A stretch of DNA of 64,000 nucleotides from Octopus sinensis (lineage: Eukaryota). The notes beneath the pieces are model-generated. The model worked only from the letters and a program-made list of their open reading frames with translations, did no database searches and was not told the DNA's origin. The stretch lies in assembly GCF_006345805.1 (NCBI RefSeq), contig NC_043000.1, forward strand, positions 73,780,001-73,844,000, read 5' to 3'. Positions 1,998 to 52,200 of this stretch are shown here, piece by piece (the first letter of the stretch is position 1; every line of letters begins with the position of its first letter). Position numbers and translations under genes: made by a program.

Positions 1998-2304
1998 ATA
2001 CAAGAAACCAGGAACTGGTTGAGTATTTGAAAAACAAAACAAGCACAAACATTACAGATTTCATAATACCTACACACAACACACCACCAGCACACATTCT
2101 CACAATAAAAATAAACAAAACAGTTTACAACGAAATAAAACAAATATTCCCTAACGATGTGGGATCGTTAGGGAAAAGTTTCTCTCAGAAACTTTACAAA
2201 AATATTATTGAAGCACCCGTGCAAAAGCACAAGGGAGCCACCCCCACCACCAACAACAGTAAGTAGAGCCTTTTCTCTCCTTTTTTTCCCCTAACTTTTG
2301 AAAC

Positions 2305-5740: not shown

Positions 5741-6565
5741 TTTCAAAGAAAAAGGTAATGTAAAAGGAGAAGAAAGGGGACTCTGTACACCCCCTTTTTT
5801 TGACCAGGCTCCCGTTGGCTTTTGTAGGGTTTTTTCCACCAGGAACCTTTCGAGACGTCTCCCCCTTTTGGGAGTTTTTCATTGTTGAATTTTATAAGTT
5901 GTTATAAAGATTTTTACTCGATGTTTTTAAAAAAACGGCAAAACCCTTTGTAACCTGTCGTCCTGTCTTGTCCCTTTATGTAATCATGCGTGTCAGCCCT
6001 TGTGGCCAATAAAAAAGAATTGATTATTATTATTATTATTCTTTCTTTCTTTCCGAGACGACGGACGTGTGTAAAGCAGCACCGTAAGTTTTGTGCCAAT
6101 TTGATTGGAAATTTCTCTAAAAGTTTTTACATTTTTTGATAATTGTGTGGCCAAGCCGACTAACTTCTTGCGGAGCTAGTTGGCTAGGCAAAATTTTACC
6201 CCATTGGGGGTAAAATCACTGTTTAAAATATTGACATTTGCATTTTATTTCACTTACAAATTTCCAAAATGTCGTTAAAAAGAGCAGCTGGCTCTTCCCT
6301 TCTTGCAACCCCCCCCCCCTCCACAAGAAAATATTGATTCTCCAAACCGCCCATTTCGTGCCTTAAAAGGCAAAGAAAACTCTTCGATGAAACATGTCGT
6401 TCCAAAAAAGAATGAAAATGAAAACGAAGGCGTCACTTTTGACGTCTTCGAAGACTTCCCTCCTCTTCCCTCTGCAAGCGTCCCAGTAGGGGGGAAAAGA
6501 CGGACAAAAGCAACAAAGATGGCGTCACCTTTGACGTCAATCAGAATTTTCTTTCTCTCCATTCC

Positions 6566-8170: not shown

Positions 8171-8212
8171 GAGCCTTTTTCTCCTTTTATTTTTTTTTCT
8201 CACCTTTGAAAC

Positions 8213-11200
8213 GTGGCAAAACTTAGAATCGGTTGCTTGAATATGAGAGGCCTCGGGTCACCTTGGAAACAGGGTCACCTGTTAAACGACCTGAGGTTTC
8301 ATGATGTGGATGTAGCAGCCATCAGTGAAACCAGGCTCTCCGACCCGCAGGAACTCGCAGCCCTTTTCGGCGGATACGAGATATTTCTATCTCCGTGTCG
8401 GCCGGGAGCGGGCGGTGGTGGTACTGTGGTGTTGTTTCGGAAGGGCCTGGACTTGAAAATAAGGACAGTCTTCCTGGATCCGGAAGGTAAGTTGGTGGTC
8501 CTCGACGTAGACGGTAGTGACGGCGGTGCTTTCAGACTGCTGGCTGCCTACGCTCCGACAGGAGCAGGGCAGTCGGATTATTTCAAACGTCCGGAAGTTT
8601 TCCTGGGAACGTCACGCACTCTAGTGCTAGTTGGGGATTGGAACGCTGTCTTAGACGAACGTTTCGATCGGGTGGGGCAGGGAAGCGTCTGATAAGAGAG
8701 GAGGGTGCAAGAGCCTCGCCAATCTACTCGGACGCTTTCAGCTGTCCGACAGATTTCGACTAGACAACCCGAATGTGCCAATGTGGACTTGGACCAATCG
8801 TATCGGGTCGTCTAGATCGTACTTAGATAGACTGTTTTGTAGGCCAGTGGATAAGGATAGCATAGGGTGTCCACAATTCCACATAGTCGACTACACGGAC
8901 AACAAATTCGTGATCTGTACGGTCGACTTAGATAGGCTACGTAGACAGGGACCCGGCTACTGGAAGCTGAACGCGTCGTTAACGGCGTGCAAAGCTTACA
9001 GAGACCGGATTAGTTTACTAGTTAAGCGGGCGCTCACGGGGGCAATCATCAACAACAACTGGTGGTTTGCCCTCAAGAGAGCAATTAGAGTAGAGTCGAT
9101 TAGGTTTAGTAAGACTCTAGCTATTGAACGTAGGAAGAGAGAGCGGATTTAGTTAAGAAACTAGACGAGGCTCTTGAGACTGGCATCGCGACCGACGTGT
9201 TGGCGGCAAGGTTGGCCCTCGACCAACACTTTGACGCCAAACACGAAGGCTGCGTTGTCAGAGCTAAGGCACGTTCGCTAAGCGGGGAGGGGATTAGAGC
9301 CACTCGATGGGCCCGCGTGGCGGAGGCGAAGCGAGGCAACAAAGCAACCATTCGGTCTTTGATGGACCAGAACGGGCGCAAGGTTACCGAACCGAAGCAG
9401 ATGTGTACGGTGTTTAAGCGGCACTTTTCTCAGCTGTTTGGGGTGAGCGGTGGTACGGCCAACAACGGTACAGACTTCAGTGTGTACCTGGACGGCCTAC
9501 CGCGGCTCTCGAACAACGAGGCAGAGTGCTGCGAAGGACCGATATCTGCCTGGGAAGTGGAGGAAGCGATGAAGAGTTGCACGAGAGGTAGATCGCCGGG
9601 TTTGGATGGTCTGCCCTACGAGCTTTACACTTCAATGTCAGACTTATTTGCGGGGCTGTTGGCAAACGTCTACTGCAACTGGCAGCAAAACGGGAGAATT
9701 CCTGCTTTTGTCTGTCGAGGGGTGGTGACTTTGCTAAAAAAAGGACCCAAACAAGGGGGACGTTATAGGGAATTTTCGGCCCATCACTCTGCTCAATGCA
9801 GAGTTGAAGATTTTGGCCAAGGTGCTAGCCAGAAATTGGCGCTTGTCGTGGACAAGCTGGTTGGCAAGACGCAGACATGCGCCGTGCCGACCAGGTCGAT
9901 ACACGACAACCTCCATCTCATGCGCTACATCATAGAGAGGGTGGGTAACGACGCTGGCGCGGGTGGGGCTTTGATCAATTTAGATCAGAGTAAAGCCTTC
10001 GATAGGGTCGACCATCGGTACCTGGCAGCTGTTCTCAGGCAGCCGGCTTCGGTCCAGTCTTCCGAGGGTGGGTCGCTGCTTTATACAGCAACATCTGCTC
10101 GGTGATACGGGTGAACGGTCACCTTTCGGAACCGTTCGACATCTCGCGTTCGGTCCGCCAAGGATGCCCTCTCTCCTCCCTCTTGTACATATTGACTCTC
10201 GAGCCATTACTGCGCAAGTTGGAGGCTTTGAGGGTATCCCGCGCGATCTAGGAGGCGGAAACAGCGTGTCTGCCTATGCCGAGACGACGTCACCGTGATG
10301 GTGTCGAGCCACAGGCACATTGGCCTGATTGGCGAGACACTAAACGAGTACGAAGCGGTGACAGGGGCAAAGATTAACGCGGAAAAGTCTGTGGGCTTGC
10401 AACTGGGCACCTGGAGAAGCAAGCCCATGCCGTCCAACAGCGTCGTAGGGCGCTGGACAGACGGACCCGTTAAACTGCTCGGGGTCTGGTTCGGTCCGGA
10501 CCTCCAGGTGAATAAAAACTGGGAAGAAGTGACGAGCAGGGTGGCACGTCTCACCCAGAAATGGGCCGAGAGGAAGCTGTCCCCGAAAGGTCGAGCGGAG
10601 GTGGCGAATGCATACATCGCATCCGTCATCTATTACCGCTTGACCGTCGTCCCTTGTCCCAACCGCTGGTTGGCCAAGCTGGTACGCCTGCTCTTCGACT
10701 TTTTGTGGAAGGGTCAGGTGCCACTGGTCAGGCGATCCATCTGCTGTCATCGACCGCTGAACGGAGGCATTGGCATGCCGTGGTTACTGATGCGCAGACA
10801 TGCGCTCAGGCTGCGATATCTCAAGCGTTTCCTAGACGGTGATCAGGTGTGGTCGTCTTTTGTCAGACGCGACTTTCCGCAGCTCGTCTCTTTGACAGAG
10901 CTGCAGACCTGGATCAAACGTAGACCGAGAAAGGGCGCCTGGCACCTCGAGTGCCGTCAAGCTCTCTCCGCCCTCCGCCAGGCGGGCAATGCGATCGGTT
11001 TTAGTTCCACTCAAGCGTTCTATAGAGGGTTAGTGGAGGGAAAATGCGACGACGTTCTCGGGGAAACTCTTGACGTTGATAACGAACTGAGCGATCTGTT
11101 CGGAAGGACTTCCGGGCTGGGGCCAATGGATAATTTCCAGTGCTACCGAGGGGCTCTGCTTTACACTTCAATGTCAGACTTATTTGCGGGGCTGTTGGCA

Positions 11201-12483
11201 AACGTCTACTGCAACTGGCAGCAAAACGGGAGAATTCCTGCTTTTGTCTGTCGAGGGGTGGTGACTTTGCTAAAAAAAGGACCCAAACAAGGGGGACGTT
11301 ATAGGGAATTTTCGGCCCATCACTCTGCTCAATGCAGAGTTGAAGATTTTGGCCAAGGTGCTAGCCAAGAAATTGGCGCTTGTCGTGGACAAGCTGGTTG
11401 GCAAGACGCAGACATGCGCCGTGCCGACCAGGTCGATACACGACAACCTCCATCTCATGCGCTACATCATAGAGAGGGTGGGTAACGACGCTGGCGCGGG
11501 TGGGGCTTTGATCAATTTAGATCAGAGTAAAGCCTTCGATAGGGTCGACCATCGGTACCTGGCAGCTGTTCTCAAGGCAGCCGGCTTCGGTCCAGTCTTC
11601 CGAGGGTGGGTCGCTGCTTTATACAGCAACATCTGCTCGGTGATACGGGTGAACGGTCACCTTTCGGAACCGTTCGACATCTCGCGTTCGGTCCGCCAAG
11701 GATGCCCTCTCTCCTCCCTCTTGTACATATTGACTCTCGAGCCATTACTGCGCAAGTTGGAGGCTTTGAGGGGTATCCCGCGCGATCTAGGAGGCGGAAA
11801 CAGCGTGTCTGCCTATGCCGAGACGACGTCACCGTGATGGTGTCGAGCCACAGGCACATTGGCCTGATTGGCGAGACACTAAACGAGTACGAAGAGGGTA
11901 TAGAGGGTTAGTGGAGGGAAAATGCGACGACGTTCTCGGGGAAACTCTTGACGTTGATGATAACGAACTGAGCGATCTGTTCGGAAGGACTTCCGGGCCG
12001 GGGCCAATGGATAATTTCCAGTGCTACCGAGGGGCTCTGCCTGTTCGGGATAAACTCTACCGGCACGGAAGTGCCGTCAGCCGGGCCTGCCCGAGGTGTT
12101 GCCAGGACGACGAAACCGTTCTGCACGCACCGGTCCAGTGCCCGAGTATTGCTGAACTATGGGTTTATGTCGAACAGCTACTGTCGCGCATAGGACGGAT
12201 CCGGCTATCAGCCGAATCCATAGTGAAGATTGCCCCACCGACAATGTGGAAGGGTCAGGTACACACTGTGGTGAAAGAGATTGTATGGTGGACCCGTTTG
12301 AAAGGGCTAAAGTCAGACACTTTCCTCTTTGGTCAAGGCCTCATCAACTTTTTCAAGTTTCACTTGAAAAGGAAGATGAGGTTAGAGAGGAGAGTGCTGT
12401 CCGATAGCAAGTTTTCTGAAAGGTGGGTGAATTGTGCGAGAATGGCCAGTATAAATGGACCAATTCTCAGGTTTCGCCTGTGA
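8213..12483 (+). pseudogene. ORF2 of Tx1 copy 2, frameshifted, RT segment duplicated
   Basis: ORF fragments 8213, 8775, 9197, 10295, 11340 and 11815 match copy 1 ORF2. Confidence 0.9.
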
Positions 12484-12821: not shown

Positions 12822-12865
12822 GTGAGGGTTGGAATTAACAAGATTAATGTTGGAACTCCCAGAAA

Positions 12866-13172
12866 ATGGCCGACCAATTCCCGGACGTCTGTGGAGGTCT
12901 TTATCGCGATGATTGTCTGCTTTATCTCCAAAACATTTCAAATCAAAAAATACAAAAGGTTAAGAATAGATTAGTTGGGTTTTTTTACATCGTTTTTGAC
13001 GATGAGTTAAATAAAGCTAATTTCTTAGACATTACTCTCAATTTACAAAATAGCTCGTACTTCCCATACCATAAACCTTCCACAAATCTCAAATATATTA
13101 GTCCTTACAGTAATCACGCTAGGGCAATTACTAAGAATTTAGTTAAAAACATTTCACTTAGATTATCTAAAT
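12866..13172 (+). pseudogene. Penelope-like element reverse transcriptase fragment
   Basis: GGLYRDD...NFLDITL...YHKP...YISPYSNH...NISLRLSKL, typical PLE RT core and thumb. Confidence 0.8.
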
Positions 13173-13204
13173 TATGCGCGTATTTTCCTTTTTTAATTTC
13201 TTTT

Positions 13205-26166: not shown

Positions 26167-26384
26167 TAATAATAAATATTAGGGAATAAATCCAAACTTA
26201 CAGGGAAAAATCAGATTTAGGATTGAATCCAATTTTATAGTAAAATATTATATTATATTAAATTAGAGACAAAACCACTATTAGGCAAATCATACAATGA
26301 AAAACTTAAGCCAATACATAAGATTATTTAATTTATATTATTTAAATATATAACAAAATTATTAAAAAAATATAATTAATATAT

Positions 26385-26448
26385 CACTACGATCGTTTCA
26401 TGGCTGTTAATTTCTTTAAATTTTCAAGTCACAGTCATTCATCAGGTG
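26385..26448 (-). ncRNA. Hammerhead ribozyme (type I, minimal palindromic stem III)
   Basis: CAC-CTGATGA-ATGACTGT...ACAGCCAT-GAAA-CGATCG-TA-GTG. Confidence 0.75.
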
Positions 26449-27123
26449 GTTTAAATATCAGACTCAATATTCAATAAACCATTAAATATTTATTATTTAG
26501 TAATAAAATATTTAGTAATAAAATGAACAACCATCTATAATCTAACTATAATTAAAAACAAAACCTAACTAACTAAAATAATCTATTATAATAAGTACTA
26601 CAAATCACCTGGTATATTTATAATACTATTACATAAAACAACAAATAGGGAGCTAATTAAGGCTAAGAAATAATCATTATTTATCAAGAAATTTATTATA
26701 TAAGTAAAGTAACTTGTGTCTGCATTTTATTTTGCGCTCATCACAGGTATTCAGTAAATTATCATGCTTATAAAATAAAATTTCCTTAAACTCATTAGAG
26801 CATAAATAACAAAAATTCGCTCCTATAGTATATGATTTAGTTTTACTAATTATTTCCCAAGATAAATTATAATTAATAAATTTCTTGATAAATAATGATT
26901 ATTTCTTAGCCTTAATTAGCTCCCTATTTGTTGTTTTATGTAATAGTATTATAAATATACCAGGTGATTTGTAGTACTTATTATAATAGATTATTTTAGT
27001 TAGTTAGGTTTTGTTTTTAATTATAGTTAGATTATAGATGGTTGTTCATTTTATTACTAAATATTTTATTACTAAATAATAAATATTTAATGGTTTATTG
27101 AATATTGAGTCTGATATTTAAAC

Positions 27124-27187
27124 CACCTGATGAATGACTGTGACTTGAAAATTTAAAGAAATTAACAGCCATGAAACGATAGTAGTG
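27124..27187 (+). ncRNA. Hammerhead ribozyme, right-arm copy (stem III CGATAG, one substitution)
   Basis: CAC-CTGATGA-ATGACTGT...ACAGCCAT-GAAA-CGATAG-TA-GTG. Confidence 0.7.
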
Positions 27188-27348
27188 ATATATTAATTAT
27201 ATTTTTTTAATAATTTTGTTATATATTTAAATAATATAAATTAAATAATCTTATGTATTGGCTTAAGTTTTTCATTGTATGATTTGCCTATTAGTGGTTT
27301 TGTCTCTAATTTAATATATATACATATATATATATATATGTGTGTGTG

Positions 27349-35027: not shown

Positions 35028-36985
35028 TGGCAAAGTTTCTACAGCTGAATGTCCTTCCTAACGCCAACCACCCCGAGAGTGTAGTGGGTGCTTTTATGTT
35101 TCACTGGCATGAGGGCCAGTCAGGTGGTACTGGCACGACCATGCTCATATGGTGCTTTTTACGTGCCACCTGCACAGGAGTCAGTCCGGTGGAACTGGCA
35201 GCGACCACGCTCGAATGGTACTTTTTACGTGCTACCGGCACAGGAGCCAGTTAGGCAATGCTGGTTACAATCACGCTCAAATGGTGATTTTTACGTGCCA
35301 CAGGCATGGGAGCCAGTCAGCGGCCCTGGCAACAATCACACTCAAATGATGCTTTTAACATTCTACTGGCACAGGTGCCAATCAGGTGGTGCTGTCATCG
35401 GCCACAACAATGATTTCACTTGCCTCAACAAGTCTTTGCAAGCGTAGTTTATTGTTAAGGGTAACCTTAAATGGGCTGGTTATACAGCACTGGCATAAGA
35501 CACAGTTATGGTCTCATTTGGCTTGCCAGGTCTTCTCAAGCACAGGTTGAGCTCATCTCCGAAGGTCTCGGTCATTTGTCATTGCCTTGGTGAGGCCCAG
35601 TTTTCCTCAACTGCTAGGGTGCGACGCTTCTTCACACAACTATCCTTATCCATTCGCAACACATGACCATACCAGCAGTCATCTCTCTTGCACACCACAT
35701 CTCATGCTTCTTAAGTACAAATTTTCTTTCAGGGCGCTTACACTCTTTTGTGTATGCACACTGATATTACACATCCAGCGGATCATACTGGCTTCATTCC
35801 TTGCAACCTTCACGTGTCCTCAGCAGTCACAGCCCATGTTTCACTGCCATGTAGCATGTCTGTTTGCACACATGCTTCATACAGTCCACCAGCAGGTGTA
35901 TGAGCTCTCTGAATTTGCCCGGGCTATTCTTATTCTAGCAGCTACACTTTCAGAGCATCCACTCCAGCTACTGACTTGGTCACCTAGGTAATGGAAGCTA
36001 TCAACCACTTGTAGTTTTTCCCCCTGGAATGTGATGGAAGCTGTTCTCAGCACGTTTTCAGTGTTTATTGCTCCTGAGCATTTACCACATACAAAAACTA
36101 TCTTCCCAGTTAGCTTTCCTTTGATATTGCTGCACCTCTTATGTGTCCATAGGTTAAACAGGGTACATCTTATGGAATTTCTACCTACGCCTTTTCTACA
36201 GATTGAGCAGAGCCGTCTACCTGAAAGGATTTGTAGATGTCTGACTTCCTACTAATTAAAATTTTCGCTTTTGCTAGATTGACTCTAAGACCCTTTTATT
36301 CTAGACCTTGCTTCCATACCTGAAATTTCTCCTCTAGTTCTGATAGTGACTCAGCAATTAGAGCAAGGTCATCAGCATAGAGGAGCTCCCAGGGGCATCC
36401 TGTCTTGAATTCCTCTGTTATTGCCTGGAGGACTATGACGAATAAGAGAGGGCTGAGGGCTGATACTTGGTGGACCCTACCCCTACTCAGAATTCTTCCC
36501 TGTACTTGTTGCCAACTCTCACCTTACTGACAGCACCCCTGTACATGGCTTGTACAACTCTCACTAACCATTCATCTATTCCTAGTTTCCTCATTGATCA
36601 CCAGATAAGGGATTGGCGGACCCTACCAAAGTATTTCTCCATGTCAACGAAAGCCAGGTACAGAGGTTATTCTTTGGCTAGGTATTTCTCTTGCAGCTGT
36701 CTTACCAGAAATATAGCATCAGTGGTGCTTTTTCCTGGCACAGACCCAAACTACATCTCATCTAGACAGACTCTCTCCCTAATTAGTTGGGCTATAACCC
36801 TCTCCGTGACTTTCATTACCTGATCCACCAACTTGATACCTATGTAATTATTTGCATCTAATAGGTCACCTTTACCTTTGTAGCAGTTGACTATTATGCT
36901 GCTACACCAGTCATTGGGTATGACTCCTTCGTGTATCACCTGGTTGACTATAAGCCTAACTAGACTATGGCCGACACTACCATAC
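35028..36985 (-). mobile_element. 5'-truncated RTE-clade LINE
   Basis: IPNDWCSSIIVNCYKGKGD, LLYADDL region; same 3' UTR subrepeats as the 31976-35000 copy. Confidence 0.85.
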
Positions 36986-37061
36986 ATACATATATATATA
37001 TATATACAATATATATATTATATATTATTATATATATACATATATATATAATATAATATAT

Positions 37062-37094
<33 letters not shown>

Positions 37095-37143
37095 TACCTA
37101 TATATATATATATATCTACATAATATATATATATATTATATAC

Positions 37144-37185
<42 letters not shown>

Positions 37186-37187
37186 TA

Positions 37188-37219
<32 letters not shown>

Positions 37220-37266
37220 TATATATATATTACATATTATATACATATATATATATATATCATATA

Positions 37267-37306
<40 letters not shown>

Positions 37307-37433
37307 CATGATATTATATTATATATACATATATATTATATATATACATATATATATATATATTATACATATATATATATATATATACATCTATATATAT
37401 ATCTATATATATATAATACACATATATATATAT

Positions 37434-37483
<50 letters not shown>

Positions 37484-37496
37484 TTATATATATATA

Positions 37497-37571
<75 letters not shown>

Positions 37572-37704
37572 TATATATCTTATATATATATACATATATA
37601 TATATATATAATAATTATACATATATATATCTATATATATATCTTACATATATATTATATATAATCTATTATATATCTATATATATCTATATATATATAT
37701 ATAC

Positions 37705-37755
<51 letters not shown>

Positions 37756-37838
37756 AGACATATATATAATATATATTATATACATATATATATACATATA
37801 ATATACATATATATATACATATATATAATATATATATA

Positions 37839-37882
<44 letters not shown>

Positions 37883-38091
37883 ATATATATATATAATATA
37901 TACATATATATATAATATATATATATATACATAGATATCTTATATATAATATATATATCTATATATATATATATATCTATCATATAAGATATATATATAC
38001 ATATATCTATAATATATATACAATATTATAATATATATATATATACATATATATATATCTACATATATATATATATATATCTAATATACTC

Positions 38092-38125
<34 letters not shown>

Positions 38126-38441
38126 CATATATAATATATATACATATATACATACTATATATATACATATACTATAATATATATATATACATATATATAT
38201 ATATAATATATATATACATATATATATATACATATATATATATATTCATATATATTATATATCCATATCTATATATATATATATATATATACATATATAC
38301 TATATATTATATATATACATATATATATATATATCTATAATATATATATATATATATATATCTATATATCTATACATTATATTATATATATAATATAATA
38401 TATATATATACACTAATATATATATATATCTATAGACTATA

Positions 38442-38491
<50 letters not shown>

Positions 38492-38871
38492 ATATATCTA
38501 TATATATATATATATACTTCATATATATACTTATATATATATATATATACAATATATATATATATAATATATATATCATATATATATATCTAATATATAT
38601 ATAACATATATATATATATATATATATAATATATATTATAGATATATAATATATCTATTATATAGTATATATATATATTATACATATATATATATATATA
38701 TACATATATATATAATATACTATACAATTATATATATTATATATATATACATATATCTATATATAATATATATATATATATTATATATATATCTATATAT
38801 ACATATATATATATCATATCTATACATATATATTCTATATACATATATATATATATATATATTATATATAC

Positions 38872-38907
<36 letters not shown>

Positions 38908-38981
38908 TATATATACATACATAGCATATATCTATATCTATATATACTATATATATCTATATATACATATATTCTATATCC

Positions 38982-39035
<54 letters not shown>
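36986..39035. repeat. About 2 kb imperfect (TA)n tract
   Basis: Direct inspection. Confidence 0.95.
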
Positions 39036-39036
<1 letters not shown>

Positions 39037-39208
39037 TGAGTGTATTTTTGCCTTGTTAACAATTAACACGAAAAAAAATAGTTACCACAGGGTAGCAAAA
39101 ATCACACAAGTAAAGAGGTTGTAACGCCTTGTTCATAAAGGTAGAAACTTCGTGTTTACGTGGAATGTTTTGTATAATATATAAATCAGGTATAAATCAA
39201 ATACTTTT

Positions 39209-39295
39209 ACTTTCGACACATGTTTCGAAAATTCCACTGATATTATTCAAAAGAATAAATGGTATAAAACAATGCAATCTTCTCTTCAGGAAAGT
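39209..39295 (-). ncRNA. Hammerhead ribozyme (canonical core, GUC site)
   Basis: ACTTTC-CTGAAGA-GAAGATT...AATTTTC-GAAA-CATGTG-TC-GAAAGT. Confidence 0.8.
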
Positions 39296-39343
39296 GAAAA
39301 AACTAAACTCGTCAATAAGATATTTTAGCATATATATATATAT

Positions 39344-39382
<39 letters not shown>

Positions 39383-39408
39383 TATATGTATATATATGTA
39401 TATATATG

Positions 39409-39459
<51 letters not shown>

Positions 39460-39642
39460 AGTGATAGTCTATTCTATTCTATTATTCTATTTATTCTTTT
39501 ATCTACTTTATCACTGATTCTTTTGACCACTCCCCTAAGAAAGACAGTTTGCGCCATGCCTACCCCAAAAAGTCCCCCACCACCACCACCACCACTTTAA
39601 ATCTGCCTAAATGTATAAATGCCAAAACTATTCTTGTCACCA

Positions 39643-39693
39643 AGCTTCCTGATGATTTCTTTTGAATGAAACAGTTCTAGTCCTGTAGAAGCT
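39643..39693 (+). ncRNA. Hammerhead ribozyme (compact, GUA site)
   Basis: AGCTTC-CTGATGA-TTTC TTTT GAAT-GAAA-CAG TTCTAGTC CTG-TA-GAAGCT. Confidence 0.85.
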
Positions 39694-39906
39694 CCTTCTA
39701 TAAAATAAATTAATTTACTCTGCTATGTATTGAGTACTTTATTTACTGTGGTTAACCCCGACTCAACCCGGGACCTACATATATATATATATATATATAG
39801 AAATTCAGGGTGAGCACTTGATAATTGTAAGCACCTGTATATACCGTTTGGTGGTGTAGGTGGTGGAGTAAATTAATCAAAATAAAAACATGATGCCAAG
39901 GATTCA

Positions 39907-39984
39907 GCGGTACATATGTTTCGGGCCTTTATTAGAAGGATTTATAACAATGCATAATGTGTGTCTATGGCCTTCTTCAGCCGC
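39907..39984 (-). ncRNA. Hammerhead ribozyme (palindromic minimal stem III)
   Basis: GCGG-CTGAAGA-AGGCC...GGCCC-GAAA-CATATG-TA-CCGC. Confidence 0.78.
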
Positions 39985-40243
39985 GCACAATTACTACCTC
40001 AAGGACATGTATTACATCAAAATTTCTACGTTGGGGATGCAAATCCTCTCATTCGCGTACGACATAATGCGGCAACAGCACAAAAATGAAGCGTCCATCT
40101 CGTCCTTCTCTACATTGAGAGAAGGACGAGATGGACGCTTCATTTTTGTGCTGTTGCCGCATTATGTCGTACGCGAATAAGAGGATTTGCATCCCTAACG
40201 TAGAATTTTGATGTAATACATGTCCTTGAGGTAGTAATTGTGC

Positions 40244-40321
40244 GCGGCTGAAGAAGGCCATAGACACACATTATGCATTGTTATAAATCCGTCTAATAAA
40301 GGCCCGAAATATATGTACCGC
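40244..40321 (+). ncRNA. Hammerhead ribozyme, right-arm copy
   Basis: GCGG-CTGAAGA-AGGCC...GGCCC-GAAA-TATATG-TA-CCGC. Confidence 0.75.
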
Positions 40322-40354
40322 TGAATCCTTGGCATCATGTTTTTATTTTGATTA

Positions 40355-40394
<40 letters not shown>

Positions 40395-40409
40395 TTATTA
40401 TATAGAAGG

Positions 40410-40460
40410 AGCTTCTACAGGACTAGAACTGTTTCATTCAAGAGAAATCTTCAGGAAGCT
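40410..40460 (-). ncRNA. Hammerhead ribozyme
   Basis: AGCTTC-CTGAAGA-TTTC TCTT GAAT-GAAA-CAG TTCTAGTC CTG-TA-GAAGCT. Confidence 0.85.
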
Positions 40461-41679
40461 AGTTGACAAGAATTGTATTGGCATTTATACATTTAGGCAG
40501 GTTTAACGGGGTGTTGGTGGGGGACTTTTTTGGGGGTAGGCATAGCACAAAATATCATACTTGGGGGAGTGGTCAAGGAGTCAGTGTTAAATTAGATAGA
40601 AGAATAAATAAAAATAAAAATAAAAAAATAAAAAAATAAAAAATAAAAAAATAAAATAAAAAAACCTATATATAAAAAAAGGGGGGATAGAGTTTTAGGT
40701 AAATAAGGAGATTCTCACTTATACCTATGCACACATGTATACATACATACACACACATACAAACACATATACATATACATACACACACATATATATACAT
40801 ATATATACACTTACACATACACATGCATATACATATCTACACATACACATATAGACAGATAAATGGACTGGCTGTCATAGCCAAGATGTTTGTGACCAAG
40901 CGGCCAAAGATAACAAAAGTAATAAACAGAAGATAATAAAATTAAAATTAGGGAATGGGCCTGTATTAGTATGTGTATATATATGTGTGTATGTGTAGGT
41001 TTGCATAGGTACACATATGTATATGTATACATGTATGTATATGTATGTATGTGTGTGTATATGTGTGTGTATGTGTATATATGTGTATATAGGGACTAGT
41101 GCGCTGTGTGTGCATGTGTGTGTGTGGATATGTGTGTGTATGCGTGTATGTGAGTATGTGTGTGTATGTGTATATATATTTTTCTGTGCGTATATGTATG
41201 TGAGGTTGTGTGTGTATATATACATGTGTGTATACGTGTATGCATGTGAGTGTGTGTGTGTATACATATATGTGTATGTGTAGATATGTATATGCATGTG
41301 TATGTGTAAGTGTATATATATGTATATATATGTGTGTGTATGTGTGTATGTATATGTATATGTGTTTGTATGTGTGTGTATGTATGTATACATGTGTGCA
41401 TAGGTATAAGTGAGAATCTCCTTATTTACCTAAAACTCTATCCCCCCTTTTTTTATATATAGGTTTTTTTGTTTTTTTTATATATAGGTTTTTTTATTTT
41501 ATTTTTTTATTTTTTTATTTTTTTATTTTTATTTATTCTTCTATCTAATTTAACACTGACTCCTTGACCACTCCCCCAAGTATGATATTTTGTGCTATGC
41601 CTACCCCCAAAAAAGTCCCCCACCAACACCCCGTTAAACTTGCCTAAATGTATAAATGCCAATACAATTCTTGTCAACT

Positions 41680-41730
41680 AGCTTCCTGAAGATTTCTCTT
41701 GAATGAAACAGTTCTAGTCCTGTAGAAGCT
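41680..41730 (+). ncRNA. Hammerhead ribozyme
   Basis: Identical to 40410-40460 on the opposite strand. Confidence 0.85.
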
Positions 41731-41818
41731 CCTTCTATATAATAAATTAATTTTACTCTGCTATGTATTGAGTACCTTATTTACTGTGGTTAACCCCGAA
41801 TCAACCCGGGACCTACAT

Positions 41819-41854
<36 letters not shown>

Positions 41855-42102
41855 AATGGTTGTTGCCACCTCAACGTGGTTGTTCTGTACAAAAATCTCC
41901 CATCCAGAGGTGACAAGTGTCCAGTACTGAGGTAGGGTAAGACCCTGAAACCAGTTCTGATCTACTAGTCCTGTTGTCGATGGCAATATAATGGACACAG
42001 ATATTGTGTTCTTAACCAGCTGGAGAAGGCGTCCTCCTGGGTTAAAAAGAATAGTAACATTGTTCTGTAAGGAACAACTACGCTGAGGTGGGAACAACCA
42101 TT
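41855..42102. mobile_element. 248 bp element with ~35 bp inverted termini inside (TA)n
   Basis: AATGGTTGTTGCCACCTCAACGTGGTTGTTC versus GAACAACTACGCTGAGGTGGGAACAACCATT. Confidence 0.7.
41923..41966 (+). ncRNA. Hammerhead-like motif (A9U variant)
   Basis: AGTA-CTGAGGT-AGGGT AAG ACCCT-GAAA-CCAGTTCTGA-TC-TACT. Confidence 0.55.
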
Positions 42103-42140
<38 letters not shown>

Positions 42141-42237
42141 TAACAATAAAGGGTGAAATTAATTAATTTGGAATAATTATTAATTACACCAAGTAGATTT
42201 CGGCATGTAAAAGCCTCATTCGAGGAAAATTTAAGTA

Positions 42238-42405
42238 ATACTAAGCAATTAAGGGTTTAGCAACGAATTGCCTCACCACACACCGAATTTAGAAATAGCA
42301 GTCAAAGAGTTATAGTAGAAAGAATAGCTATAACTCTTTGACTGCTATTTCTAAATTCGGTGTGTGGTGAGGCAATTCGTTGCTAAACCCTTAATTGCTT
42401 AGTAT
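42238..42405. repeat. Perfect palindrome (78 bp arms, 12 nt loop) between (TA)n tracts
   Basis: 42238-42315 is the reverse complement of 42328-42405. Confidence 0.95.
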
Positions 42406-43320
42406 ATATATATATATATATACAAATATATACACACGTGCATACATACATATATATATCATTCAACTACATTAGTAGTTGAATATTATCGCAGGTTTTT
42501 TTGTTGCAGTCGGCGTCTTCCTAGCAGTCTCAATAAGTCGGTTTTAATAGAAATCAAATTTAGTTTCTTGAATTTTGCTTGACTAGTGATAAGCTACATT
42601 TAGACATAAAATACTTAAAATCTGGTGCAGTAGAACAAACATTAAGAGAAAAAAATGTATAGACCATACTGGTTGACTGTGTAACAGGATGAAAGGTCTG
42701 TAACACTGGATGGGTGCAGCTCTCATTCTTATTAATCGAAGAAAAAGCCAAAACTTCTGATTATCTTCAACAGCATAAATATTTCATTTCTGGATTCGCA
42801 ATATATACATTCTTCTTTCAGGGCCAACCGGTAGCCTAGGAGTTCGTCGCAATAGTCAAGTGAAGTGAGCCAAATCCTGTCCGTTCAAGCATAGCATAGC
42901 AACGCCACGATGTGCAGCTTGAGAAAGCTGCTAAAACACGTCCGTCTTGTTGGGCTGTCAGCATTCGAGAGACCGATACGTGGGAAATTTTGCTGCTGCT
43001 AGTTTTCTGCGTAAGCGCATGAGGGAACTTCCGGCAGGCCTCCCTGAAGAATCCAACTCTGCGCATGCGTGCTGAAGATTTCCAAAATTGCATCACTACA
43101 AGGCTCCCCTCGAGTGCGGAAGCACGAAACAGAAGATTGTAGTGGTTTCAGAAAACAAGTTGGCTACCGATCACCCAGAAGATGTGGTACACAACATGAC
43201 AACACAAATAACTGTGCAAAAAAAATAATAATAATAACATGCACAAAGTTGTTTTTTTTCTCTCAACAAAATGTCCAAGAGTAAAACATGAAATTGACCA
43301 GGAGAAAAAAAGTATGTCAA

Positions 43321-45967
43321 TTATAAATTGTTTTTGATTGTTTCTTGGGCCAGTGAACAGTTCTGCCCGATCTGGTAACATAAGGTTTGCTCGGGGCACT
43401 TTTCGACAACGAAGGTAGTGTTGTAGGCGTTGGTAGAGGCAAAGGTGCCTGTGTAGGTGAATGTGTTGTCAAAGGTGCATAGGTGGGTGTCATCGAAAGA
43501 TATAGACACCTCAAAATATGCTTTTTTCAGTCGGTCAACAGAAACTGTCTCCGTACGACCATTCATCTCGATGGTGAAAACTTTAAGTGTGCGAGAAAGC
43601 ACACGGAAAGGTCCTTTATAAAGAGGAACAAGAGGTCCCTTGACAGAGTCGTTTCGAACAAAAACATACGACCAAGAGTCCATATCTGGTGGGACATGAG
43701 AGGGTGGAGATTGTTCCCTGGAAACCATGGGCGGAAGATTTGAAAAATAAGTACGAAATCTGGCGACATAAAACGCTGGATCATGGAGCTGTGAAGTGTC
43801 TGGTACCAACATCGTACCAAACAATGCCAGTGTGGTACCATACAGTAGCTCTGCAGAAGAAAAACCCAGGTCTGCCTTGACAGCAGTACGACAACCAAGA
43901 AGCACAATTGGCAGAAATTCAGTCCAAGACTGTGGATCTGCAGAGGCACGAAGAGCGGCCTTGAGCTGTCTATGGAACCGTTCAACTAATCCATTAGAAG
44001 CTGGATTATCATTATCACTGGTAGTGTGAATGTTATGCACACCTAGAATACGTGACAATTCACAAAATAACGAATCTTCAAACTGACGTCCACGAAATGG
44101 GAAATCCAGTTAGAAACAAAAGCTCGAGCAACAGACTCAACAGTAATATCTGCTATTGGAGTGGCTTCTTGCCAACGGGAGAAGCGATCGACACAGGTTA
44201 AAAGATAAGAAAACCCGCGATTCACAGGCCATGGTCCAACCAGATCAATGTGGACATGGCGAAAACGGGCCTCCGTAGGTGGAAAGTGTCCAACGAGGCA
44301 CGAACAGGACGGAAAGCACGAGGCGTGAGTTTGTCCGTTTTAGATGACAGGGCAAACGTAAGAGGCTTGTGATCAGTATAGATCACAAAATCTCGACCTT
44401 TGAGTTGATACTGGAAATGACGAACCGATAGATAGACCGCTAGGAGCTCACGATCAAAAGTGCTGTATCGTCGCTCAGCTGGTTGCAGTTGGCGAGAAAA
44501 GAAAGCCAGAGGTCGAGTACGATCGTCCACTGTGTGTTGCAGCACAGCGCCAATCGCAGTGTCCGATGCATCTACAGTTAAAGAGAGAGAAACACCAGGA
44601 ACCGGATGTGTAAGCAAAGGAACAGAAGCTAAATCCTTCTTGATGGACTCAAAAGCTGTCAGTGCCTCAGTGAAGAAGGTGACTTGACCGTCCTTTTAGT
44701 GAGAGGAAGTAGCTTATCTACACAACCGGGAATGAAACGTCTATAGAAATTGACCATCCCTAGATAATGCCTGAGCTGGCGCTAGGAAATAGGAGGTGCG
44801 ATGCGTTGAATGGCATCGACTTTTGATGACAGAGGTCTGATTCCACTCGAATCAGTATGATGACCTAGAAAATCTAGAGAAGATTGTCCGAAAACACAAT
44901 TGTCGGGATTTATGCGTACACTATAAGACACTGAAAGAGCTGAGACAGGTGCCGGAGATGATTTTCACGGGTGTCGCTCACAATGAGTATATCATCAACA
45001 TAAGCAAACACGAAATCAAGACCGCGGACAACTTCATCAATGAAACGCTGGAAAGTGCTGGTAGCGTTCCACGAACCGAAACTCATGTATAAAAACTCAA
45101 AGCACCCAAAAGGGGTGGTAATAGCAGTTTTCGGAACATCGGCTGGGTTGACCGGTATTTGGTGATAAGCGCGTATAAGATTGACTTTTGAAAAAATGGT
45201 ACAGCCATGAAGATTCGCCGAAAAATCCTGAAGATCTGGTATCGTTACTGCATTGAGGCGTTGATAATCTCCTACCGGGCGAAAATCAGACTCCTCTTTT
45301 CGCGACAAGTGAGGGGTAGACGCCCATGGGCTGGTGGAGGGGCGTATCAGGCCAAGTTGGAGCATGTGCTCAAACTTGGCCCTGGCCGTTTTTAGACGGT
45401 CAGGCGCAAGGCGCCGTGGGTGCGAAAATACAGGCGGCCCAGTGGTGGTGATAAAATGAAGGGTTGAATGGGCAGGCTTTGCCGGCTGAAAAGTAATGTC
45501 CAATAGCTCCGGAAATGAAGCAAAAGTGAATGAAAGGCGTCTCCAGAGGTGGTAACAAAAAATGTCGGGCTAAGAACCGCATTGGTAGAACCTCTAGTCG
45601 GCGTGGAGAGCGATGTAGTACCGTCGAGAAGCCTCCGACACCTGATATCTACCAATAGATTAAAATGATCCAAGAAATCAGCACCGAGAATAGGATGCAG
45701 TATGTCAGCGACGACGAAAATCCATTGAAAATCTCGACGAAGATTAATATCGAGGCGCAGAGAAATCTGACCGAAGGTGGCTATGGGAGGTGAGTCGATA
45801 GCGTGCAAAACAATAGAAGAGCGTTTAGGCTTGTATGCAGTGAGACGAAAAGGCCAAATGCTACAACAAGAACCGGTGTCTACCATGAAGAATTTCTTCG
45901 ACACCAGATCTTTGACAAAGAATGCACGATTAGTAGGAAGAGAAAAGGAGGAAGGTGCCATGCTCAA
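43321..45967 (-). pseudogene. Gypsy pol (PR-RT-RH-INT), frameshifted; integrase zinc-binding region deleted
   Basis: ORFs 45392..45967, 44910..45503, 44222..44617, 43321..44058; RH joins INT at about 44315, whereas the related copy keeps this segment at 50967-51530. Confidence 0.88.
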
Positions 45968-46051
45968 CTTCTCCGAATTTAGTTTCCCCGAAAGTTTTAA
46001 ACTGCACGGCTGGATGCACTTGCGTGCTTTATCAGCAAATTTGGAATGGTA

Positions 46052-46810
46052 CTAGCACAGCCCGGAACGAGTGTCCGAGGCGGCCGGTACGTTCACTGTG
46101 AAAAAATTAGAGTGCTCAGAGCGAGCCCCGCCGGCTTGCATACGAAAAGCATGGAATGAGGCACGAGAGGTAGAGCGACTCCGACTACGCCAACGACGCC
46201 TATTTTCCCGGCATAGCTCGTCCGTGCGTCGTGTCAGCGCGTCTATTTTGTCTGATATAGTGTCAGGTGACAGAGAAGAGGCTGAAACTGAGGCTGTCGA
46301 AGGGGTCTCAGTGCAAACGCACATGCCACGCGACTTTGGCTGGCCAGAAAATTCCAAAGTTTTATCTGCCATCGTGGCAATTTGGTCCACACTGTTGGAC
46401 TCAAGGGCTGTGGCCAAAATTGCTTGAAGGTTGGCAGGCAACATAGAGAAGAATATTTTACGAAGCAGAGGTGCGTCTGCGAAGTTCCCGCTTAACTCTC
46501 GCAAGCAACGCAAGAATTGTGAGGGGGTCTTGTCTCCTAGCCGCTCATCCGCCATTAGCTCATTAAACCTACTTTCTTCTGACCGAGTGTTGCGTCGAAG
46601 AATTTCCGCCTTGATAGACGCATAGGTGGCGTCTGGACTAGGATCTATAATGAGATCTCTAGCAGATGTGGCGAGTTGAGGAGGCAAGCTACAATAGAGG
46701 AGGTGTAACTGTTGAATGGGAGAAACGCCATGAGCCGCAAAATGGGCTTCTACTTGTGCGAACCACAGAGTCGCATCTCCCGTGAATGAATGTAAGTGTG
46801 GAACGGACAT
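46052..46810 (-). pseudogene. Gypsy gag
   Basis: LWFAQVEAHF, LGDKTPSQFLR, RSRSRS; followed by a C..H..F....C..PC knuckle broken by a stop. Confidence 0.85.
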
Positions 46811-48063
46811 GTTTCTTCGAGACGCCTGTCACAGAGAAAGGTAAACGAATGGAGGCAAAACAACGAGAAAGGAACAAATAGAATTGAGATGAAACATGAG
46901 AAACGGTGAAAAAAAAGCAACTAGCGAAACCGACAAAATATGTTTGGGGACTGGTGCGTGTGCACAAAATGAGAAAAGCAAATAAAAATTTTTTTTTTAA
47001 TTGTGAGAACAATTTTGTTAATCGTGTACTGTGTGCAGATCGAATTTTTTCCTGTTGCTGTTACGAGCAAAAATAACAGTTGCATTGCTGGAAAATGTGT
47101 TTTTTCTGCTTGTTGAGACTTCGTTCGTATTCAGTTCAGCTAACTTATGAAGATAGTGACAGTGACAGTGGAGACACATCAATATAGTGGTGGCATTGGT
47201 GGCGAGAGATAGTGTGGCCTGCAGGTCGTATACTAGCTGTGAAAATGACAGTGAAATGATTCGCAAACAGTACTGTATAAAAACCTGGGCGAGTTGCTGT
47301 GTACGTCTGTTGGCTGGCATGTTCGTTTTATTTTCAATGATCACCAATTGTAACAGGATGAAAGGTCTGTAACACTAGATGGGTGCAGCTCTCATCCTTT
47401 ACATTAAAATTATTAATCGAAGAAAAAGCCAAAACTTCCGATTATCAACAGCATAAATATCTTATTCCATGGATTCGCAATATATACATTCTTCTTTCAG
47501 GGCCAATCGGTAGCCTAGGAGCTCGTCACAGTAGTCAAGTGAAGTAAGTCAAATCCTGTCCGTTCAAGCATAGCGTAGCAACGCCACGATGTGCGGCTTG
47601 AGAGAGTTGCTAAAACACGTCCGTCCTGTTAGGCTGTCAGCATTCGAGAGACCGATACGCGGGAAATTTTGCTGCTGCTAGTTTTCTGCGCATGAGAATG
47701 AGGGAACGTCCGGCAGGCATCCCGGAAGAATGCAACTCAGCGCATGCATGCTGAAGATTTCCAAAATGGCGTCACTACAACTGACTGGTAGCAACGCCCG
47801 ACATCGACACTTTGAATCCACACCATTCTTTTAATTTCCATTAAAAATTATTATATTGTTATTGATATGAAAGAGAAATGTTAAAGGAATATAAAGGTTT
47901 CGTAAAATTTTATCCATTAGAAAAAAAGATATTTAATTTTAATTCTCAAATTTTTATCAATTTTTGCGTGATATTAAAGGGACACGACTCAGATTTCTGC
48001 CACCCCACACGAATTTGGATGATCATAACGAAATTTTGTACGAATATGTGTTACATTATGTAG

Positions 48064-49290: not shown

Positions 49291-52200
49291 TATAATGGGA
49301 CTCGAAGGTTCATGATACCTGCGGAGTATCTCCTCCCATTATAATTATTTTCTGTAGTCTTAGGATTTGGAATTCAAAGAAGAAGCTTACAAGTGGATGC
49401 AATTCAATGGTTGTTTATTTTAGTTCTCATTCATGGGGTTCACTCCCGACAACCATCTGTATCGCAGCATTAGTTCGTTATAGTTCCGTTCATATGAGGC
49501 ACATTGCCTCTGGAGATAATGGGTAAAGTTAGAGCAGGTTAAAAATCTGCTCTGAGCTGCCAGTTTACAGCGTTATTCAGCGTGAGCAAGAACGCGAGAG
49601 AGAATCACCTTAATACGCCTCCTTAAATAGATGTTGCCCACGAGAGCCTCGCTGTGGTCTCGCGCATGGTAAACATGATTGTAGGTGAAATGTCGCTCTT
49701 GTCTTGGACATGGTAATGACTGCCAGCGAGATCTTGCACAAAATGGCACTGGCTTCTTGTGTCAAGCTACAGGGGCTCCCCCCTGAGAACGCTAGTGCGA
49801 AATTAGAATGACTAGAGCATGCACAAGAAAGCAAAGATGGCCACCAATCACAAACAACAAGATGTGGTACAAAATATAATACAAAATGTGAAATTGAGAA
49901 AAAATAATCACAAGCAATATAAAAGGAGCATGCACAAAATATTTTCTACAAAGTTCAGTGGTGAGGCATTGGTATTGTTCAGCACACGAGAAAACAATTG
50001 TCTGTCACAGGAAGAAAAAAGAAAAAAAAGGTTAGCTGTAAATAGTTCTAGTGAGTTTTTTGGGTGAATGCACAGTGCAGCCTGTCCTGGTGATATAAGG
50101 TTTGTTCGTGTTGGGTAGTAGCGACAAAGGTGGAGGTGGAGGTGATGGTATGATAAAAGTACATATGCAGGTGGATGTGTAGGTGGTTGTAAAAGATCAA
50201 AAGTTGGCGTGGTTGGGGTGTCATCAAAGGGTGTGGACACCTCCAAATGTGCCCTTTTAAGTCTGTTGACCAACACAGTCTCTGCCCAACCAGTGATGTC
50301 GAGACTAAAAGTTTTGGGTGTGCGCGATAGCACACGAAATGGTTCCTTATAAGGAGAAATGAAAGGTCCCTTGACAGAATCATCCCAAACAAAAACATGA
50401 GTCCATTTGTCAATGTCTGGTGGGACGTGAGAAGGAATAGACTGGTCATATGGATGCATGGGTGGAAGACTTGAGAAATACGAGCGAAGTCTGGTGACAT
50501 ACGACATTGGATCAAGATACGATAAATTGTCTGGCGCCAACATTGTGCCAAGAAGTGCCAGGATGGTACCGTAAAAGAGTTCAGCAGATGAGAAACCTAA
50601 GTCTGTTTTAACAGCAGTGCGACAACCAAGAAGAACGATAGGCAAGAATTCTGTCCAAGACAGTGGTGCGAAGAGCAACCTTCAGTTGCCTGGGAAAACG
50701 TTCGACCATCCCATTGGGAGCTGGATGGTAGCTGGTCATATGAATGTGATGAACACCTAGGATTCGCAACAATTCACGAAATAAGGAAGCTTTGAACTGG
50801 TGTCCATGATCAGTGGTTATTTTAGCTGGGACTCCAAAGCGAGCAATCCAGTCAGAAACGAAAGCCCAAGCAACTGACTCAGTGGAAATGTCCACTATTG
50901 GAATGGCTTCAGGCCAATGAGAGAAACGATCAACGCATGTCAATATGTAAGAGAACCTGCGACAGGCTATGGTCCAACCAGATCAATGTGGACATGGTGA
51001 AAGTGAGTCTCCGGAGGAGAAAACTGTCCAAGAGGAGCGCAACTGTGCCTGTGGACTTTAGAACGCTGGCATTTCACACAAGAGCATGCCCAAGCGGTGA
51101 TCATGCAGCCAGAAAAACCACAAGCCATAATAAGCTTCACTGAGGCAGCGATGCCAGGGTGCGACAGTGAATGCAAGGCATCGAAAACAGAATGCTGGTG
51201 GGTCACAGGTACAAACGATCTGGGAGAACCAGTAGCTGTGTCACAAAGGATTGTGACTTCAGCAGACAGAAGTGGAAGATAGGCAAACTTGCAACAGGAC
51301 AGCTTGGTGGAAGTTAGATCCAATGTGTCCAGAGCTGGCTGATCCTGCGCAATGGCAGTTAAATCGATTGTGACAGGAGTTGAAATAGAACATACAGGAA
51401 AACGAGAGTGTATCAGCAGGCATGTTCTCTGTTCCAGGTATATGCCAAATCTCACTCGTGAACTGGGAAATGTAGTCCAGGTGACGGAAAGCACAAGGCG
51501 AGTGTTTATCCGATTTAGATGACAGAGCAAACGTAAGAGGCTTGTGATCAGTATAAATTACAAAATCCCGACCTTCGAGTTGATGCTGAAAGTGACAAAT
51601 TGACTGGTAGATCACTAAGAGTTCATGATCAAACATACTGTGATGATACTTGGCTGGCTGTAATTGACGAGAAAAAAATGCCAAAGGCCGAGTTTGATTG
51701 TCGATGGTATGTTGCAAAACAGCACCAACTGCAGAATCCAATTATATCAACTGTTAAAGAGAGACAAGCATAAAGAGCCAGACGTGCAAGCAAGGGAACA
51801 GAAGCTATTTCCTTCTTAATTTACTCAAAAGAAGATAATGCCTTTGCAGATAGAGTGATAGGAGCATCTCTTTTTGTATTTGCTTTCAGTAGTTGAGTCA
51901 GTGGAAGTAACTTGTCTGCACATTTATGTATGAATCTTCCATAGAAGTTGACTATTCCCAAAAAGTGATGCAATTGGCGTAGAGAAGTGGGAGGTGAGAT
52001 GTGTTGAATTGCATCGACTTTAGAGGAGAGATGTCAGATACCATTAGAGTCAATATAATGACCTAGGAATTCCAGAGAGGCCTTTCCAAAAACACACTTA
52101 TCGGGGTTGGTTCGCACATTGTAGGTAGCGCGTACATAGTTCATTATAGCTCCATTCAAGTGAGGTACATTACCTCTGGAGATAATGAGTAAAGTTAGAG

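Follow-up and report, generated by a model that had tools for sequence, protein, structure and literature searches.

Why does a single (TA)n tract in the genome of Octopus sinensis hold, within 3.4 kb, six insertions and a dense set of hammerhead ribozyme motifs? The tract lies in a 64-kb stretch of contig NC_043000.1 (RefSeq assembly GCF_006345805.1, forward strand, positions 73,780,001 to 73,844,000), which is called the window here and whose own numbering is used throughout. An earlier note, written from the sequence letters alone, had described 'unique' islands parted by (TA)n, with seven hammerheads and three long palindromes, and had attributed them to several non-coding, ribozyme-bearing retroelement families that repeatedly target (TA)n. 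The computational analysis presented here indicates that the pile very probably arose through six independent retrotransposition events into this one tract, carried out by Penelope-like element (PLE) machinery.

A pile of insertions in one (TA)n tract

The pile (positions 39036-42405) comprises six insertions from five families, labelled A to E, and each insertion is flanked by perfect (TA)n of 20-43 nt, which bears out the described separation of the islands. The terminal 43-nt perfect run of the preceding tract (36982-39034) directly adjoins the first insertion (Table 1). The three long palindromes were likewise recovered, with all arm pairs located (39869-40111/40118-40359, 40389-40861/41267-41751 and 42238-42315/42328-42405). 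What did not hold up is the uniqueness of the islands, every one of which is a high-copy repeat in its own genome. The nearest genomic copy is 99% identical for A, 98% for both C and the second A subfamily (A′), 96% for E, 87% for B and 77-86% for D; since these identities differ, the insertions must be of unequal age.

A first look at the 2.72-Gb genome returned 3604 candidates for B, 1656 for A, 1402 for A′ and 1566 for C as well as, with two queries each, 292 and 1086 for D and 2305 and 2150 for E, figures that count candidates and are not copy numbers. The best 40 candidates were scored per search, and the samples behind the following counts lean towards young, similar copies.

Table 1. 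The (TA)n tract and the pieces of the insertion pile, in window coordinates
Feature	Positions	Strand	Remarks
Degenerate (TA)n tract	36982..39034	.	~1050 units, 80% matches
Family B, 5′-truncated 3′ end of coding PLE (pLTR + long 'tail' end)	39036..39330	-	hammerhead C3 39289, predicted cut after 39215
Second subfamily of family A (A′, ~91% to A), tailed 3′ end	39460..39778	+	hammerhead C3 39649, predicted cut after 39687
Family C inverted arm, long-site end (~69-nt tail 39801-39869)	39801..40111	-	hammerhead C3 39980, predicted cut after 39911
Family C direct arm, short-site end	40118..40357	+	hammerhead C3 40248, predicted cut after 40317
Family A inverted arm, short-site end	40403..40853	-	hammerhead C3 40454, predicted cut after 40416
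Direct arm of family A: terminal 950 nt of TG/TA-rich 3′ UTR + pLTR + tail	40861..41816	+	hammerhead C3 41686, predicted cut after 41724
Family D short inverted stub	41855..41887	-	33 nt matched
Family D, part of old 357-nt retrozyme monomer	41912..42106	+	decayed hammerhead 41921-41968 (C3 41927, A9U at 41933)
Family E, monomer positions 416-591 of 593-nt retrozyme, long end	42140..42315	-	without hammerhead
Opposite arm of family E with short end, monomer positions 398-493	42310..42405	+	–
pLTR, pseudo-long terminal repeat; UTR, untranslated region.

Families A, B and C: ends of coding Penelope-like elements

Judged by protein motifs and by neighbouring sequences, on which the assignment of reverse transcriptase (RT) and GIY-YIG endonuclease is based, A, B and C are 5′-truncated 3′ ends of protein-coding PLEs whose RT and GIY-YIG frames are found elsewhere in the genome. 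The linkage to PLE open reading frames (ORFs) that the earlier note had proposed as a check was thus found for all three families, and its description of the islands as non-coding fails for them. For B, one locus (L116) holds a 541-aa open RT and endonuclease frame followed 170 nt later by B sequence, a frame that is matched at 17 of 23 B loci, and in a further copy (L002) the B end continues into the start of an ORF, with RWLT and DKT motifs. In the case of C, RT and endonuclease frames lie on the same strand 2.2 kb upstream of the hammerhead (L129), and the 3′ UTR is TG/TA-rich and about 2.2 kb long. For A, the RT/endonuclease frames in the inverted arm of two loci (L122 and L023) run into a 3′ UTR that is shared, at 94.6% over 1885 nt, with the direct arm leading to the hammerhead. 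This 3′ UTR of ~3.3 kb is TG/TA-rich and shows 76-81% purine/pyrimidine alternation. All four long copies measured have TA runs at corresponding places, ~1250 and 1700-1780 nt from the end. It also contains an E-like retrozyme remnant (~3150 nt upstream of the A 3′ end in L122, and also present in L023; score 49 versus a shuffle maximum of 29), which by its sequence is an old insertion now carried by A copies.

All three families display the pLTR structure of PLEs, i.e. tandem or inverted 5′-truncated copies with a tail on one end. The endonuclease ends in CxxC..E..N..CxH in A and B, with no CCHH; for C, the single copy read has a frameshift at this end. A CxCX5C linker precedes GIY-YIG in A and C, and the linker cysteines are absent from every B frame that covers the linker region. 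Of 27 relatives of the B protein, the two with a named source are octopus proteins, with 56% and 47% identity over parts. These features make A and C probable members of the Hydra clade of PLEs, although they are longer than the Hydra elements described, while B is filed as Hydra-like and not as a Hydra member because its linker cysteines are all lost.

Two further PLE traces were seen in the window. A palindrome of a sixth, Hydra-type family (26200-27313) encloses an endonuclease remnant (26683-26874, minus strand) and hammerhead-like motifs at ~26390-26450 (minus) and ~27125-27190 (plus), whose helix I is too short for the descriptor scan used below. An RT fragment 72% identical to the B protein (12863-13180) lies between (TTA)n and TA/TG repeats.

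Families D and E: probable ORF-less retrozymes

By their sequence organisation, families D and E look like ORF-less non-LTR (long terminal repeat) retrozymes with monomers of 357 and 593 nt, respectively, and for these two the term 'non-coding' stands, both appearing ORF-less in the loci examined. E forms exact head-to-tail arrays with a period of 592-593 nt and one hammerhead per unit, and its tail-to-head junction occurs in all 30 loci of the second E search (seven of which overlap another locus). A Hydra-type ORF was found at none of 50 E loci within 1.5 kb on either side of the best-scoring copies. In D, the unit measures 357 nt, is terminally redundant and gives permuted matches. E is young, with 99% identical copies, and D is old. 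The window's E piece is truncated ~120 nt downstream of the family hammerhead and carries no motif because it begins beyond it.

The end-to-start joint of E was also found in contigs of three of four sequencing runs (two guessed to be RNA, one unlabelled and large), which fits a circle or a genomic tandem alike. A classification of E as a Tc1/mariner miniature inverted-repeat transposable element, for which its CAGT start and TA flanks were considered, was rejected on account of the tandem 593-nt units with their hammerhead.

Targeting of (TA)n and two-site ends

The flanks of the genomic copies bear out the earlier proposal that (TA)n is a recurrent target of several retroelement families with hammerheads. 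At least five TA units lie within 20 nt of the 3′ end in 24/24 copies of A, 16/19 of B, 21/23 of C and 40/42 of E, i.e. in 84-100%, versus 1.7% of positions in 40 arbitrary 10-kb stretches (400 kb) of which (TA)n makes up 2.4%; these counts drop six loci that are the window itself and eight that repeat a place. Family B is without the cysteine linker proposed to aim PLEs at (TA)n and yet ends there.

None of the families A to E ends at its hammerhead cut site. Each has two preferred 3′ ends, both downstream of the hammerhead and 60-146 nt apart, which lie ~23 and 92 (A), 53 and 199 (B), 42 and 111 (C), 170 and 231 (D) and 195 and 294 nt (E) after the cut site. Where both ends of an inverted pair can be read, one is long and the other short (in 2/2 pairs of A, 5/5 of B, 2/2 of C and 23/23 of E), and the C, A and E insertions of the window follow the same rule. 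The palindromes are inverted insertions of PLE type.

Hammerhead motifs in the pile

Six motifs (C3 positions and strands in Table 1) have the intact CUGANGA/GAAA/UH core and, by core and helices, are type I hammerheads for which self-cleavage is predicted. The descriptor that finds them tolerates one mispaired or additional base where helix II starts; applied to 500 dinucleotide shuffles of the 2551 bases outside repeats, it yielded a mean of 0.002 and a maximum of one. In five of the six, the base of helix II (10.1/11.1) is mismatched, as U.U in A, including the A′ motif (C3 39649), and as A.C in C. A strict descriptor, which allows no helix II mismatch, recovers one of the seven noted motifs, namely that of B, with a helix I of 6 bp, a helix II of 7 bp with a long loop and a near-palindromic helix III. 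A U.U pair at this place is seen in many Hydra PLE hammerheads (supplement of Craig et al. 2021, PMC8557442), and an axolotl retrozyme with the same pair is reported to cleave weakly (PMC7229834).

Six of the seven hammerheads that had been noted are thus intact, and the seventh, that of family D (41921-41968), is a decayed copy: besides A9U, it has a mismatch at 15.2/16.2 and another in helix I, and it fails the descriptor even with position 9 free. The reading of A9U as a natural variant core had to be rejected, as the D consensus is canonical and nine of 11 copies have A at position 9. The seven noted motifs trace to five insertion events because in both C and A the two motifs arose by inverted duplication. 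That they belong to four families (A, B, C and D) was correct, but the helices of these families are not all unrelated, given that B and C share a stretch of loop II and a similar palindromic helix III.

Of the checks that had been suggested, the descriptor thus succeeded, whereas the Rfam models did not: there was no match at the gathering score in the 64-kb window, and no hammerhead family was among the 78 matches at E<=10 in 39000-42500. MicroRNA and snoRNA matches were rejected as hairpin and simple-repeat noise. The expectation that standard annotation would miss the motifs therefore holds for Rfam but less so for a de novo repeat finder, which would be expected to catch the high-copy families, though probably without naming the ribozyme.

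Minimum-energy folding recovers helices I and II for the B motif, and the folding stability of the seven window motifs is not significant (z-scores -0.97 to +1.11). Among genomic copies, the core varies most at position 7 in B and D, and in A no other core position differs. Stem pairing among D copies reaches 81.9% versus 22-37% for slid partners, with a structure that was drawn from the same sequences; the motif copies of A, C and E are too alike to show stem covariation.

Abundance and clustering

How exceptional is such a pile? The hammerhead scan found five motifs in the 400 kb of arbitrary stretches versus none or one in shuffles, which extrapolates to ~34,000 motifs genome-wide (11,000-79,000). 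This number is a lower bound because the scan missed the pair in the sixth family's palindrome. Under uniform insertion, 0.1-3 windows with four intact-motif events per 3.4 kb would be expected in the genome, and the expected number rises with TA targeting because (TA)n constitutes so small a share of the sample. Foreign hammerheads occur within 1.5 kb of nine of 131 copies, about twice the background, which is not significant (p=0.14, computed on 10 loci including L005, a mis-sorted own-family motif). General co-clustering of hammerhead families elsewhere was rejected on these grounds, and the idea that 'ribozyme islands' are a widespread or functional kind of structure is not supported: the pile is an extreme of an ordinary insertion process.

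Beyond families A to E, the loci revealed at least 10 further hammerhead families (L012, L020, L043, L070, L078, L083, L101, L116, L136, L170, L180, L188, L198), in nearly all of which helix III is palindromic or close to it. A Hydra-type ORF fragment was present in four of the 40 arbitrary 10-kb stretches (L161, L169, L192, L198), and Hydra-type PLEs are therefore abundant in this genome.

A proposed course of events

The mechanism we propose builds on what was observed here, i.e. the motifs, the copy families, their ORF linkage, the tandem monomers, TA adjacency and the two end positions. A Penelope-like RT/GIY-YIG protein would nick (TA)n and prime reverse transcription there, at one of two fixed internal RNA sites located 20-300 nt downstream of the hammerhead. 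Reverse transcription would usually halt early, such that most insertions consist of the hammerhead-bearing 3′ end alone. When both strands are primed, one per site, a head-to-head palindrome with a 'tail' on one arm would result. Nicking of both strands and two internal start sites are taken from in vitro work on a Poseidon PLE (PMC11167929); that each arm uses its own site is our extension of these findings. The D and E monomers may borrow the PLE machinery (trans-mobilisation). As perfect (TA)n is left on both sides of each insertion, the place would remain a target, and the hammerheads would be passengers inherited from their masters, presumably with no function at, and no selection for, this locus.

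Weighing the alternatives

Several observations sit uneasily with six PLE-driven insertions into one tract. Another 17 perfect runs (20-39 nt) in the tract 36982-39034 are insertion-free, with all six insertions at one tract end. Family D is the least regular member: only six of its 23 3′ ends lie within 20 nt of (TA)5 or longer, its insertion in the window breaks the long/short rule in that both arms are short, and covariation in its stems is weak (changes on both sides in four of 14 pairs, a value reached by two of 500 shuffles). A Hydra-type match occurs within 1.5 kb of one of 25 D loci (L058), and the absence of ORFs from both D and E is a statement about the 1.5-kb flanks of best-scoring copies. 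Among the 23 inverted E pairs, 16 were fetched by a query of the same shape, and a query blind to ends gave seven of seven. Pfam returned no match for the three PLE proteins tried. The full hammerhead is absent from the predicted minimum-energy folds of A, C and D; for A and C, such poor folds agree with the low in vitro activity of PLE hammerheads and their need for dimers, as reported (PMC4209133). A U4C core change is common to six of 24 B motif copies, and an intact core is therefore not needed for spread; the B subfamily with this change has itself spread (L014, L017, L018, L019 and others).

The most serious competitor, which we nevertheless consider rather unlikely, is a self-reinforcing hotspot, in which the TG/TA-rich 3′ UTRs of A and C and the regenerated (TA)n attract further insertions and create piles beyond what TA content predicts. 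The TA runs at fixed places in the A 3′ UTR and the E-like piece embedded there would suit such a scenario, as would the adjacent pairs A+E (L102, L140), A+B (L121) and A+C (L130) and the small number of comparable piles expected under uniform insertion. However, the excess of foreign hammerheads near copies is not significant, TA targeting alone already concentrates insertions in 2.4% of the genome, and none of the six insertions lies inside another's 3′ UTR. That D and E are not RNA-mobilised retrozymes but ordinary PLE 3′ ends or DNA-level satellites is improbable: although partial tandems are normal for PLEs and D is weakly linked to TA, the exact 593-nt arrays, the same junction in 30/30 loci and the lack of an ORF in 50 loci speak for retrozymes, and 5′ truncation, fixed 3′ ends and inverted arms fit reverse transcription and not unequal crossing-over.

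A selected RNA-processing locus, be it for multiple cleavage or as a source of long double-stranded RNA or small RNAs, appears highly improbable. Any read-through transcript of these 3.4 kb would be expected to be cut and folded, given six motifs distributed over both strands and three long hairpins, yet every piece is shaped like an ordinary truncated copy, the insertions differ in age, the D motif is decayed, the E piece has no motif and the surroundings consist of transposon remnants. Missed-adapter reads can yield inverted duplications, and the palindromes might on that account be artefacts of long-read assembly; this has next to no likelihood, as the arms differ by substitutions and by the family-specific tail, and the long/short layout recurs at 32 other loci. 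Serial insertion by PLE machinery thus remains the reading that we favour.

Surroundings of the pile

The rest of the 64-kb window is occupied by remnants of long interspersed nuclear elements (LINEs), Gypsy-type and mariner-type elements and simple repeats. The (TA)n tract itself shows a strong C-over-G skew (about -0.87), and its start (36982) abuts a truncated LINE RT remnant that is duplicated ~3 kb upstream. Two similar LINE copies with zinc knuckle, RT and zf-RVT lie in tandem at 546-12483. On the other side of the pile, a Gypsy-type LTR element (42791-47769, minus strand) has terminal repeats 92% alike and interrupted frames, with a related fragment near 50960-51740.

What the locus adds

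Hammerheads in PLEs, targeting of (TA)n, inverted ends and retrozymes have all been published, and a derivation of retrozymes from PLEs has been argued in a 2026 preprint (bioRxiv 10.64898/2026.07.22.740005); as such, the pile represents known elements at high density. In the literature searched, which left most subscription journals and supplements outside its coverage, we found no retrozyme with a tail-and-inversion footprint or a 593-nt monomer, no linker-less (TA)n-targeting family and no kilobase microsatellite 3′ UTRs. The titles searched, again with most subscription journals outside coverage, listed no cephalopod hammerheads or retrozymes beyond Hydra-1_Obim, and the main text of a recent octopus repeat annotation mentions neither hammerheads nor ribozymes.

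On this basis, a wider picture can be offered tentatively, and with rather more doubt than conviction: animal retrozymes may be inserted by Penelope-type double priming, as the E footprint suggests; aiming at (TA)n may do without the cysteine linker, as in B; and the microsatellite 3′ UTRs of Hydra-type elements may seed new (TA)n targets, with PLEs, retrozymes and microsatellites driving each other's amplification and unannotated hammerheads left behind in this genome by the tens of thousands. The case for PLEs as movers of non-LTR retrozymes has so far been made, in the sources covered, from shared motifs, co-occurrence and trees. Family E is young and bears a PLE footprint, and the same genome also contains near-intact candidate helpers, which makes trans-mobilisation directly assayable. 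Family B offers a way to test whether PLEs are directed to (TA)n by the cysteine linker, as has been proposed in print, and an estimated 34,000 hammerhead motifs, of a kind missed by Rfam in this window, together with microsatellite-carrying PLEs bear on the simple-repeat richness of such genomes.

Comparison with known systems

The closest counterparts of A, B and C are the PLEs of the Hydra clade, described as having canonical hammerheads and (TA)n targets and including a member, Hydra-1_Obim, from Octopus bimaculoides (Craig et al. 2021, PMC8557442). As in that description, GIY-YIG follows the RT at the C-terminus, the CxxC..E..N..CxH ending occurs in A and B, the CxCX5C linker in A and C and DKT in B, a type I hammerhead lies near the 3′ end, the target is (TA)n, truncated copies are inverted and the A motifs have U.U at the base of helix II, as is often the case in Hydra. 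For the clade, the motifs RWK and DKT are given; those read in B are RWLT and DKT. The differences are that B has no linker cysteine at all, that Hydra elements are given as generally <3 kb whereas the 3′ UTR of A alone measures ~3.3 kb and that of C ~2.2 kb of microsatellite-like sequence, and that the tails span 60-146 nt here as opposed to the 30-40 described. Compared by eye, the motif listed for Hydra-1_Obim matches none of the five motifs found here.

D and E resemble the non-LTR retrozymes (Cervera and de la Pena 2020, PMC7229834) in being AT-rich and ORF-less and in their head-to-tail monomers, each of which has a single type I hammerhead. The size of 150-450 bp given for such elements accommodates D (357 nt), which is close to the 350-390 bp of mussel retrozymes, also from a mollusc, and is exceeded by E (593 nt). 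Retrozymes are known as linear and circular RNA, while D and E are known here from DNA. Non-LTR retrozymes have been proposed to derive from PLE pLTRs (PMC7229834; bioRxiv 10.64898/2026.07.22.740005). What sets D and E apart from the retrozymes described are the PLE-type inverted arms and the two fixed 3′ ends, together with (TA)n targeting by E; the main text of the preprint (Li, Clavereau and Pollet) does not use 'tail' and has 'inverted' in one reference only.

For the mechanism, the Poseidon PLE PAc of the green anole is the most informative parallel. Both DNA strands are reported to be nicked and extended, two internal RT start sites define an optional tail, and insertion in vitro does not depend on the hammerhead (Frangieh et al. 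2024, PMC11167929). PAc shares with the octopus families the two end sites, the AT-rich targets and a hammerhead upstream of the copy ends; it differs in belonging to another clade, in its much closer start sites and in having been tested as a coding element without a retrozyme. A second parallel is Penelope of Adineta vaga, where target-site duplications are visible that would be hidden by (TA)n here. There, a direct and an inverted pLTR have been described, one arm bearing a tail, and pLTR sequence suffices for mobilisation in trans (Arkhipova et al. 2013, PMC3846280).

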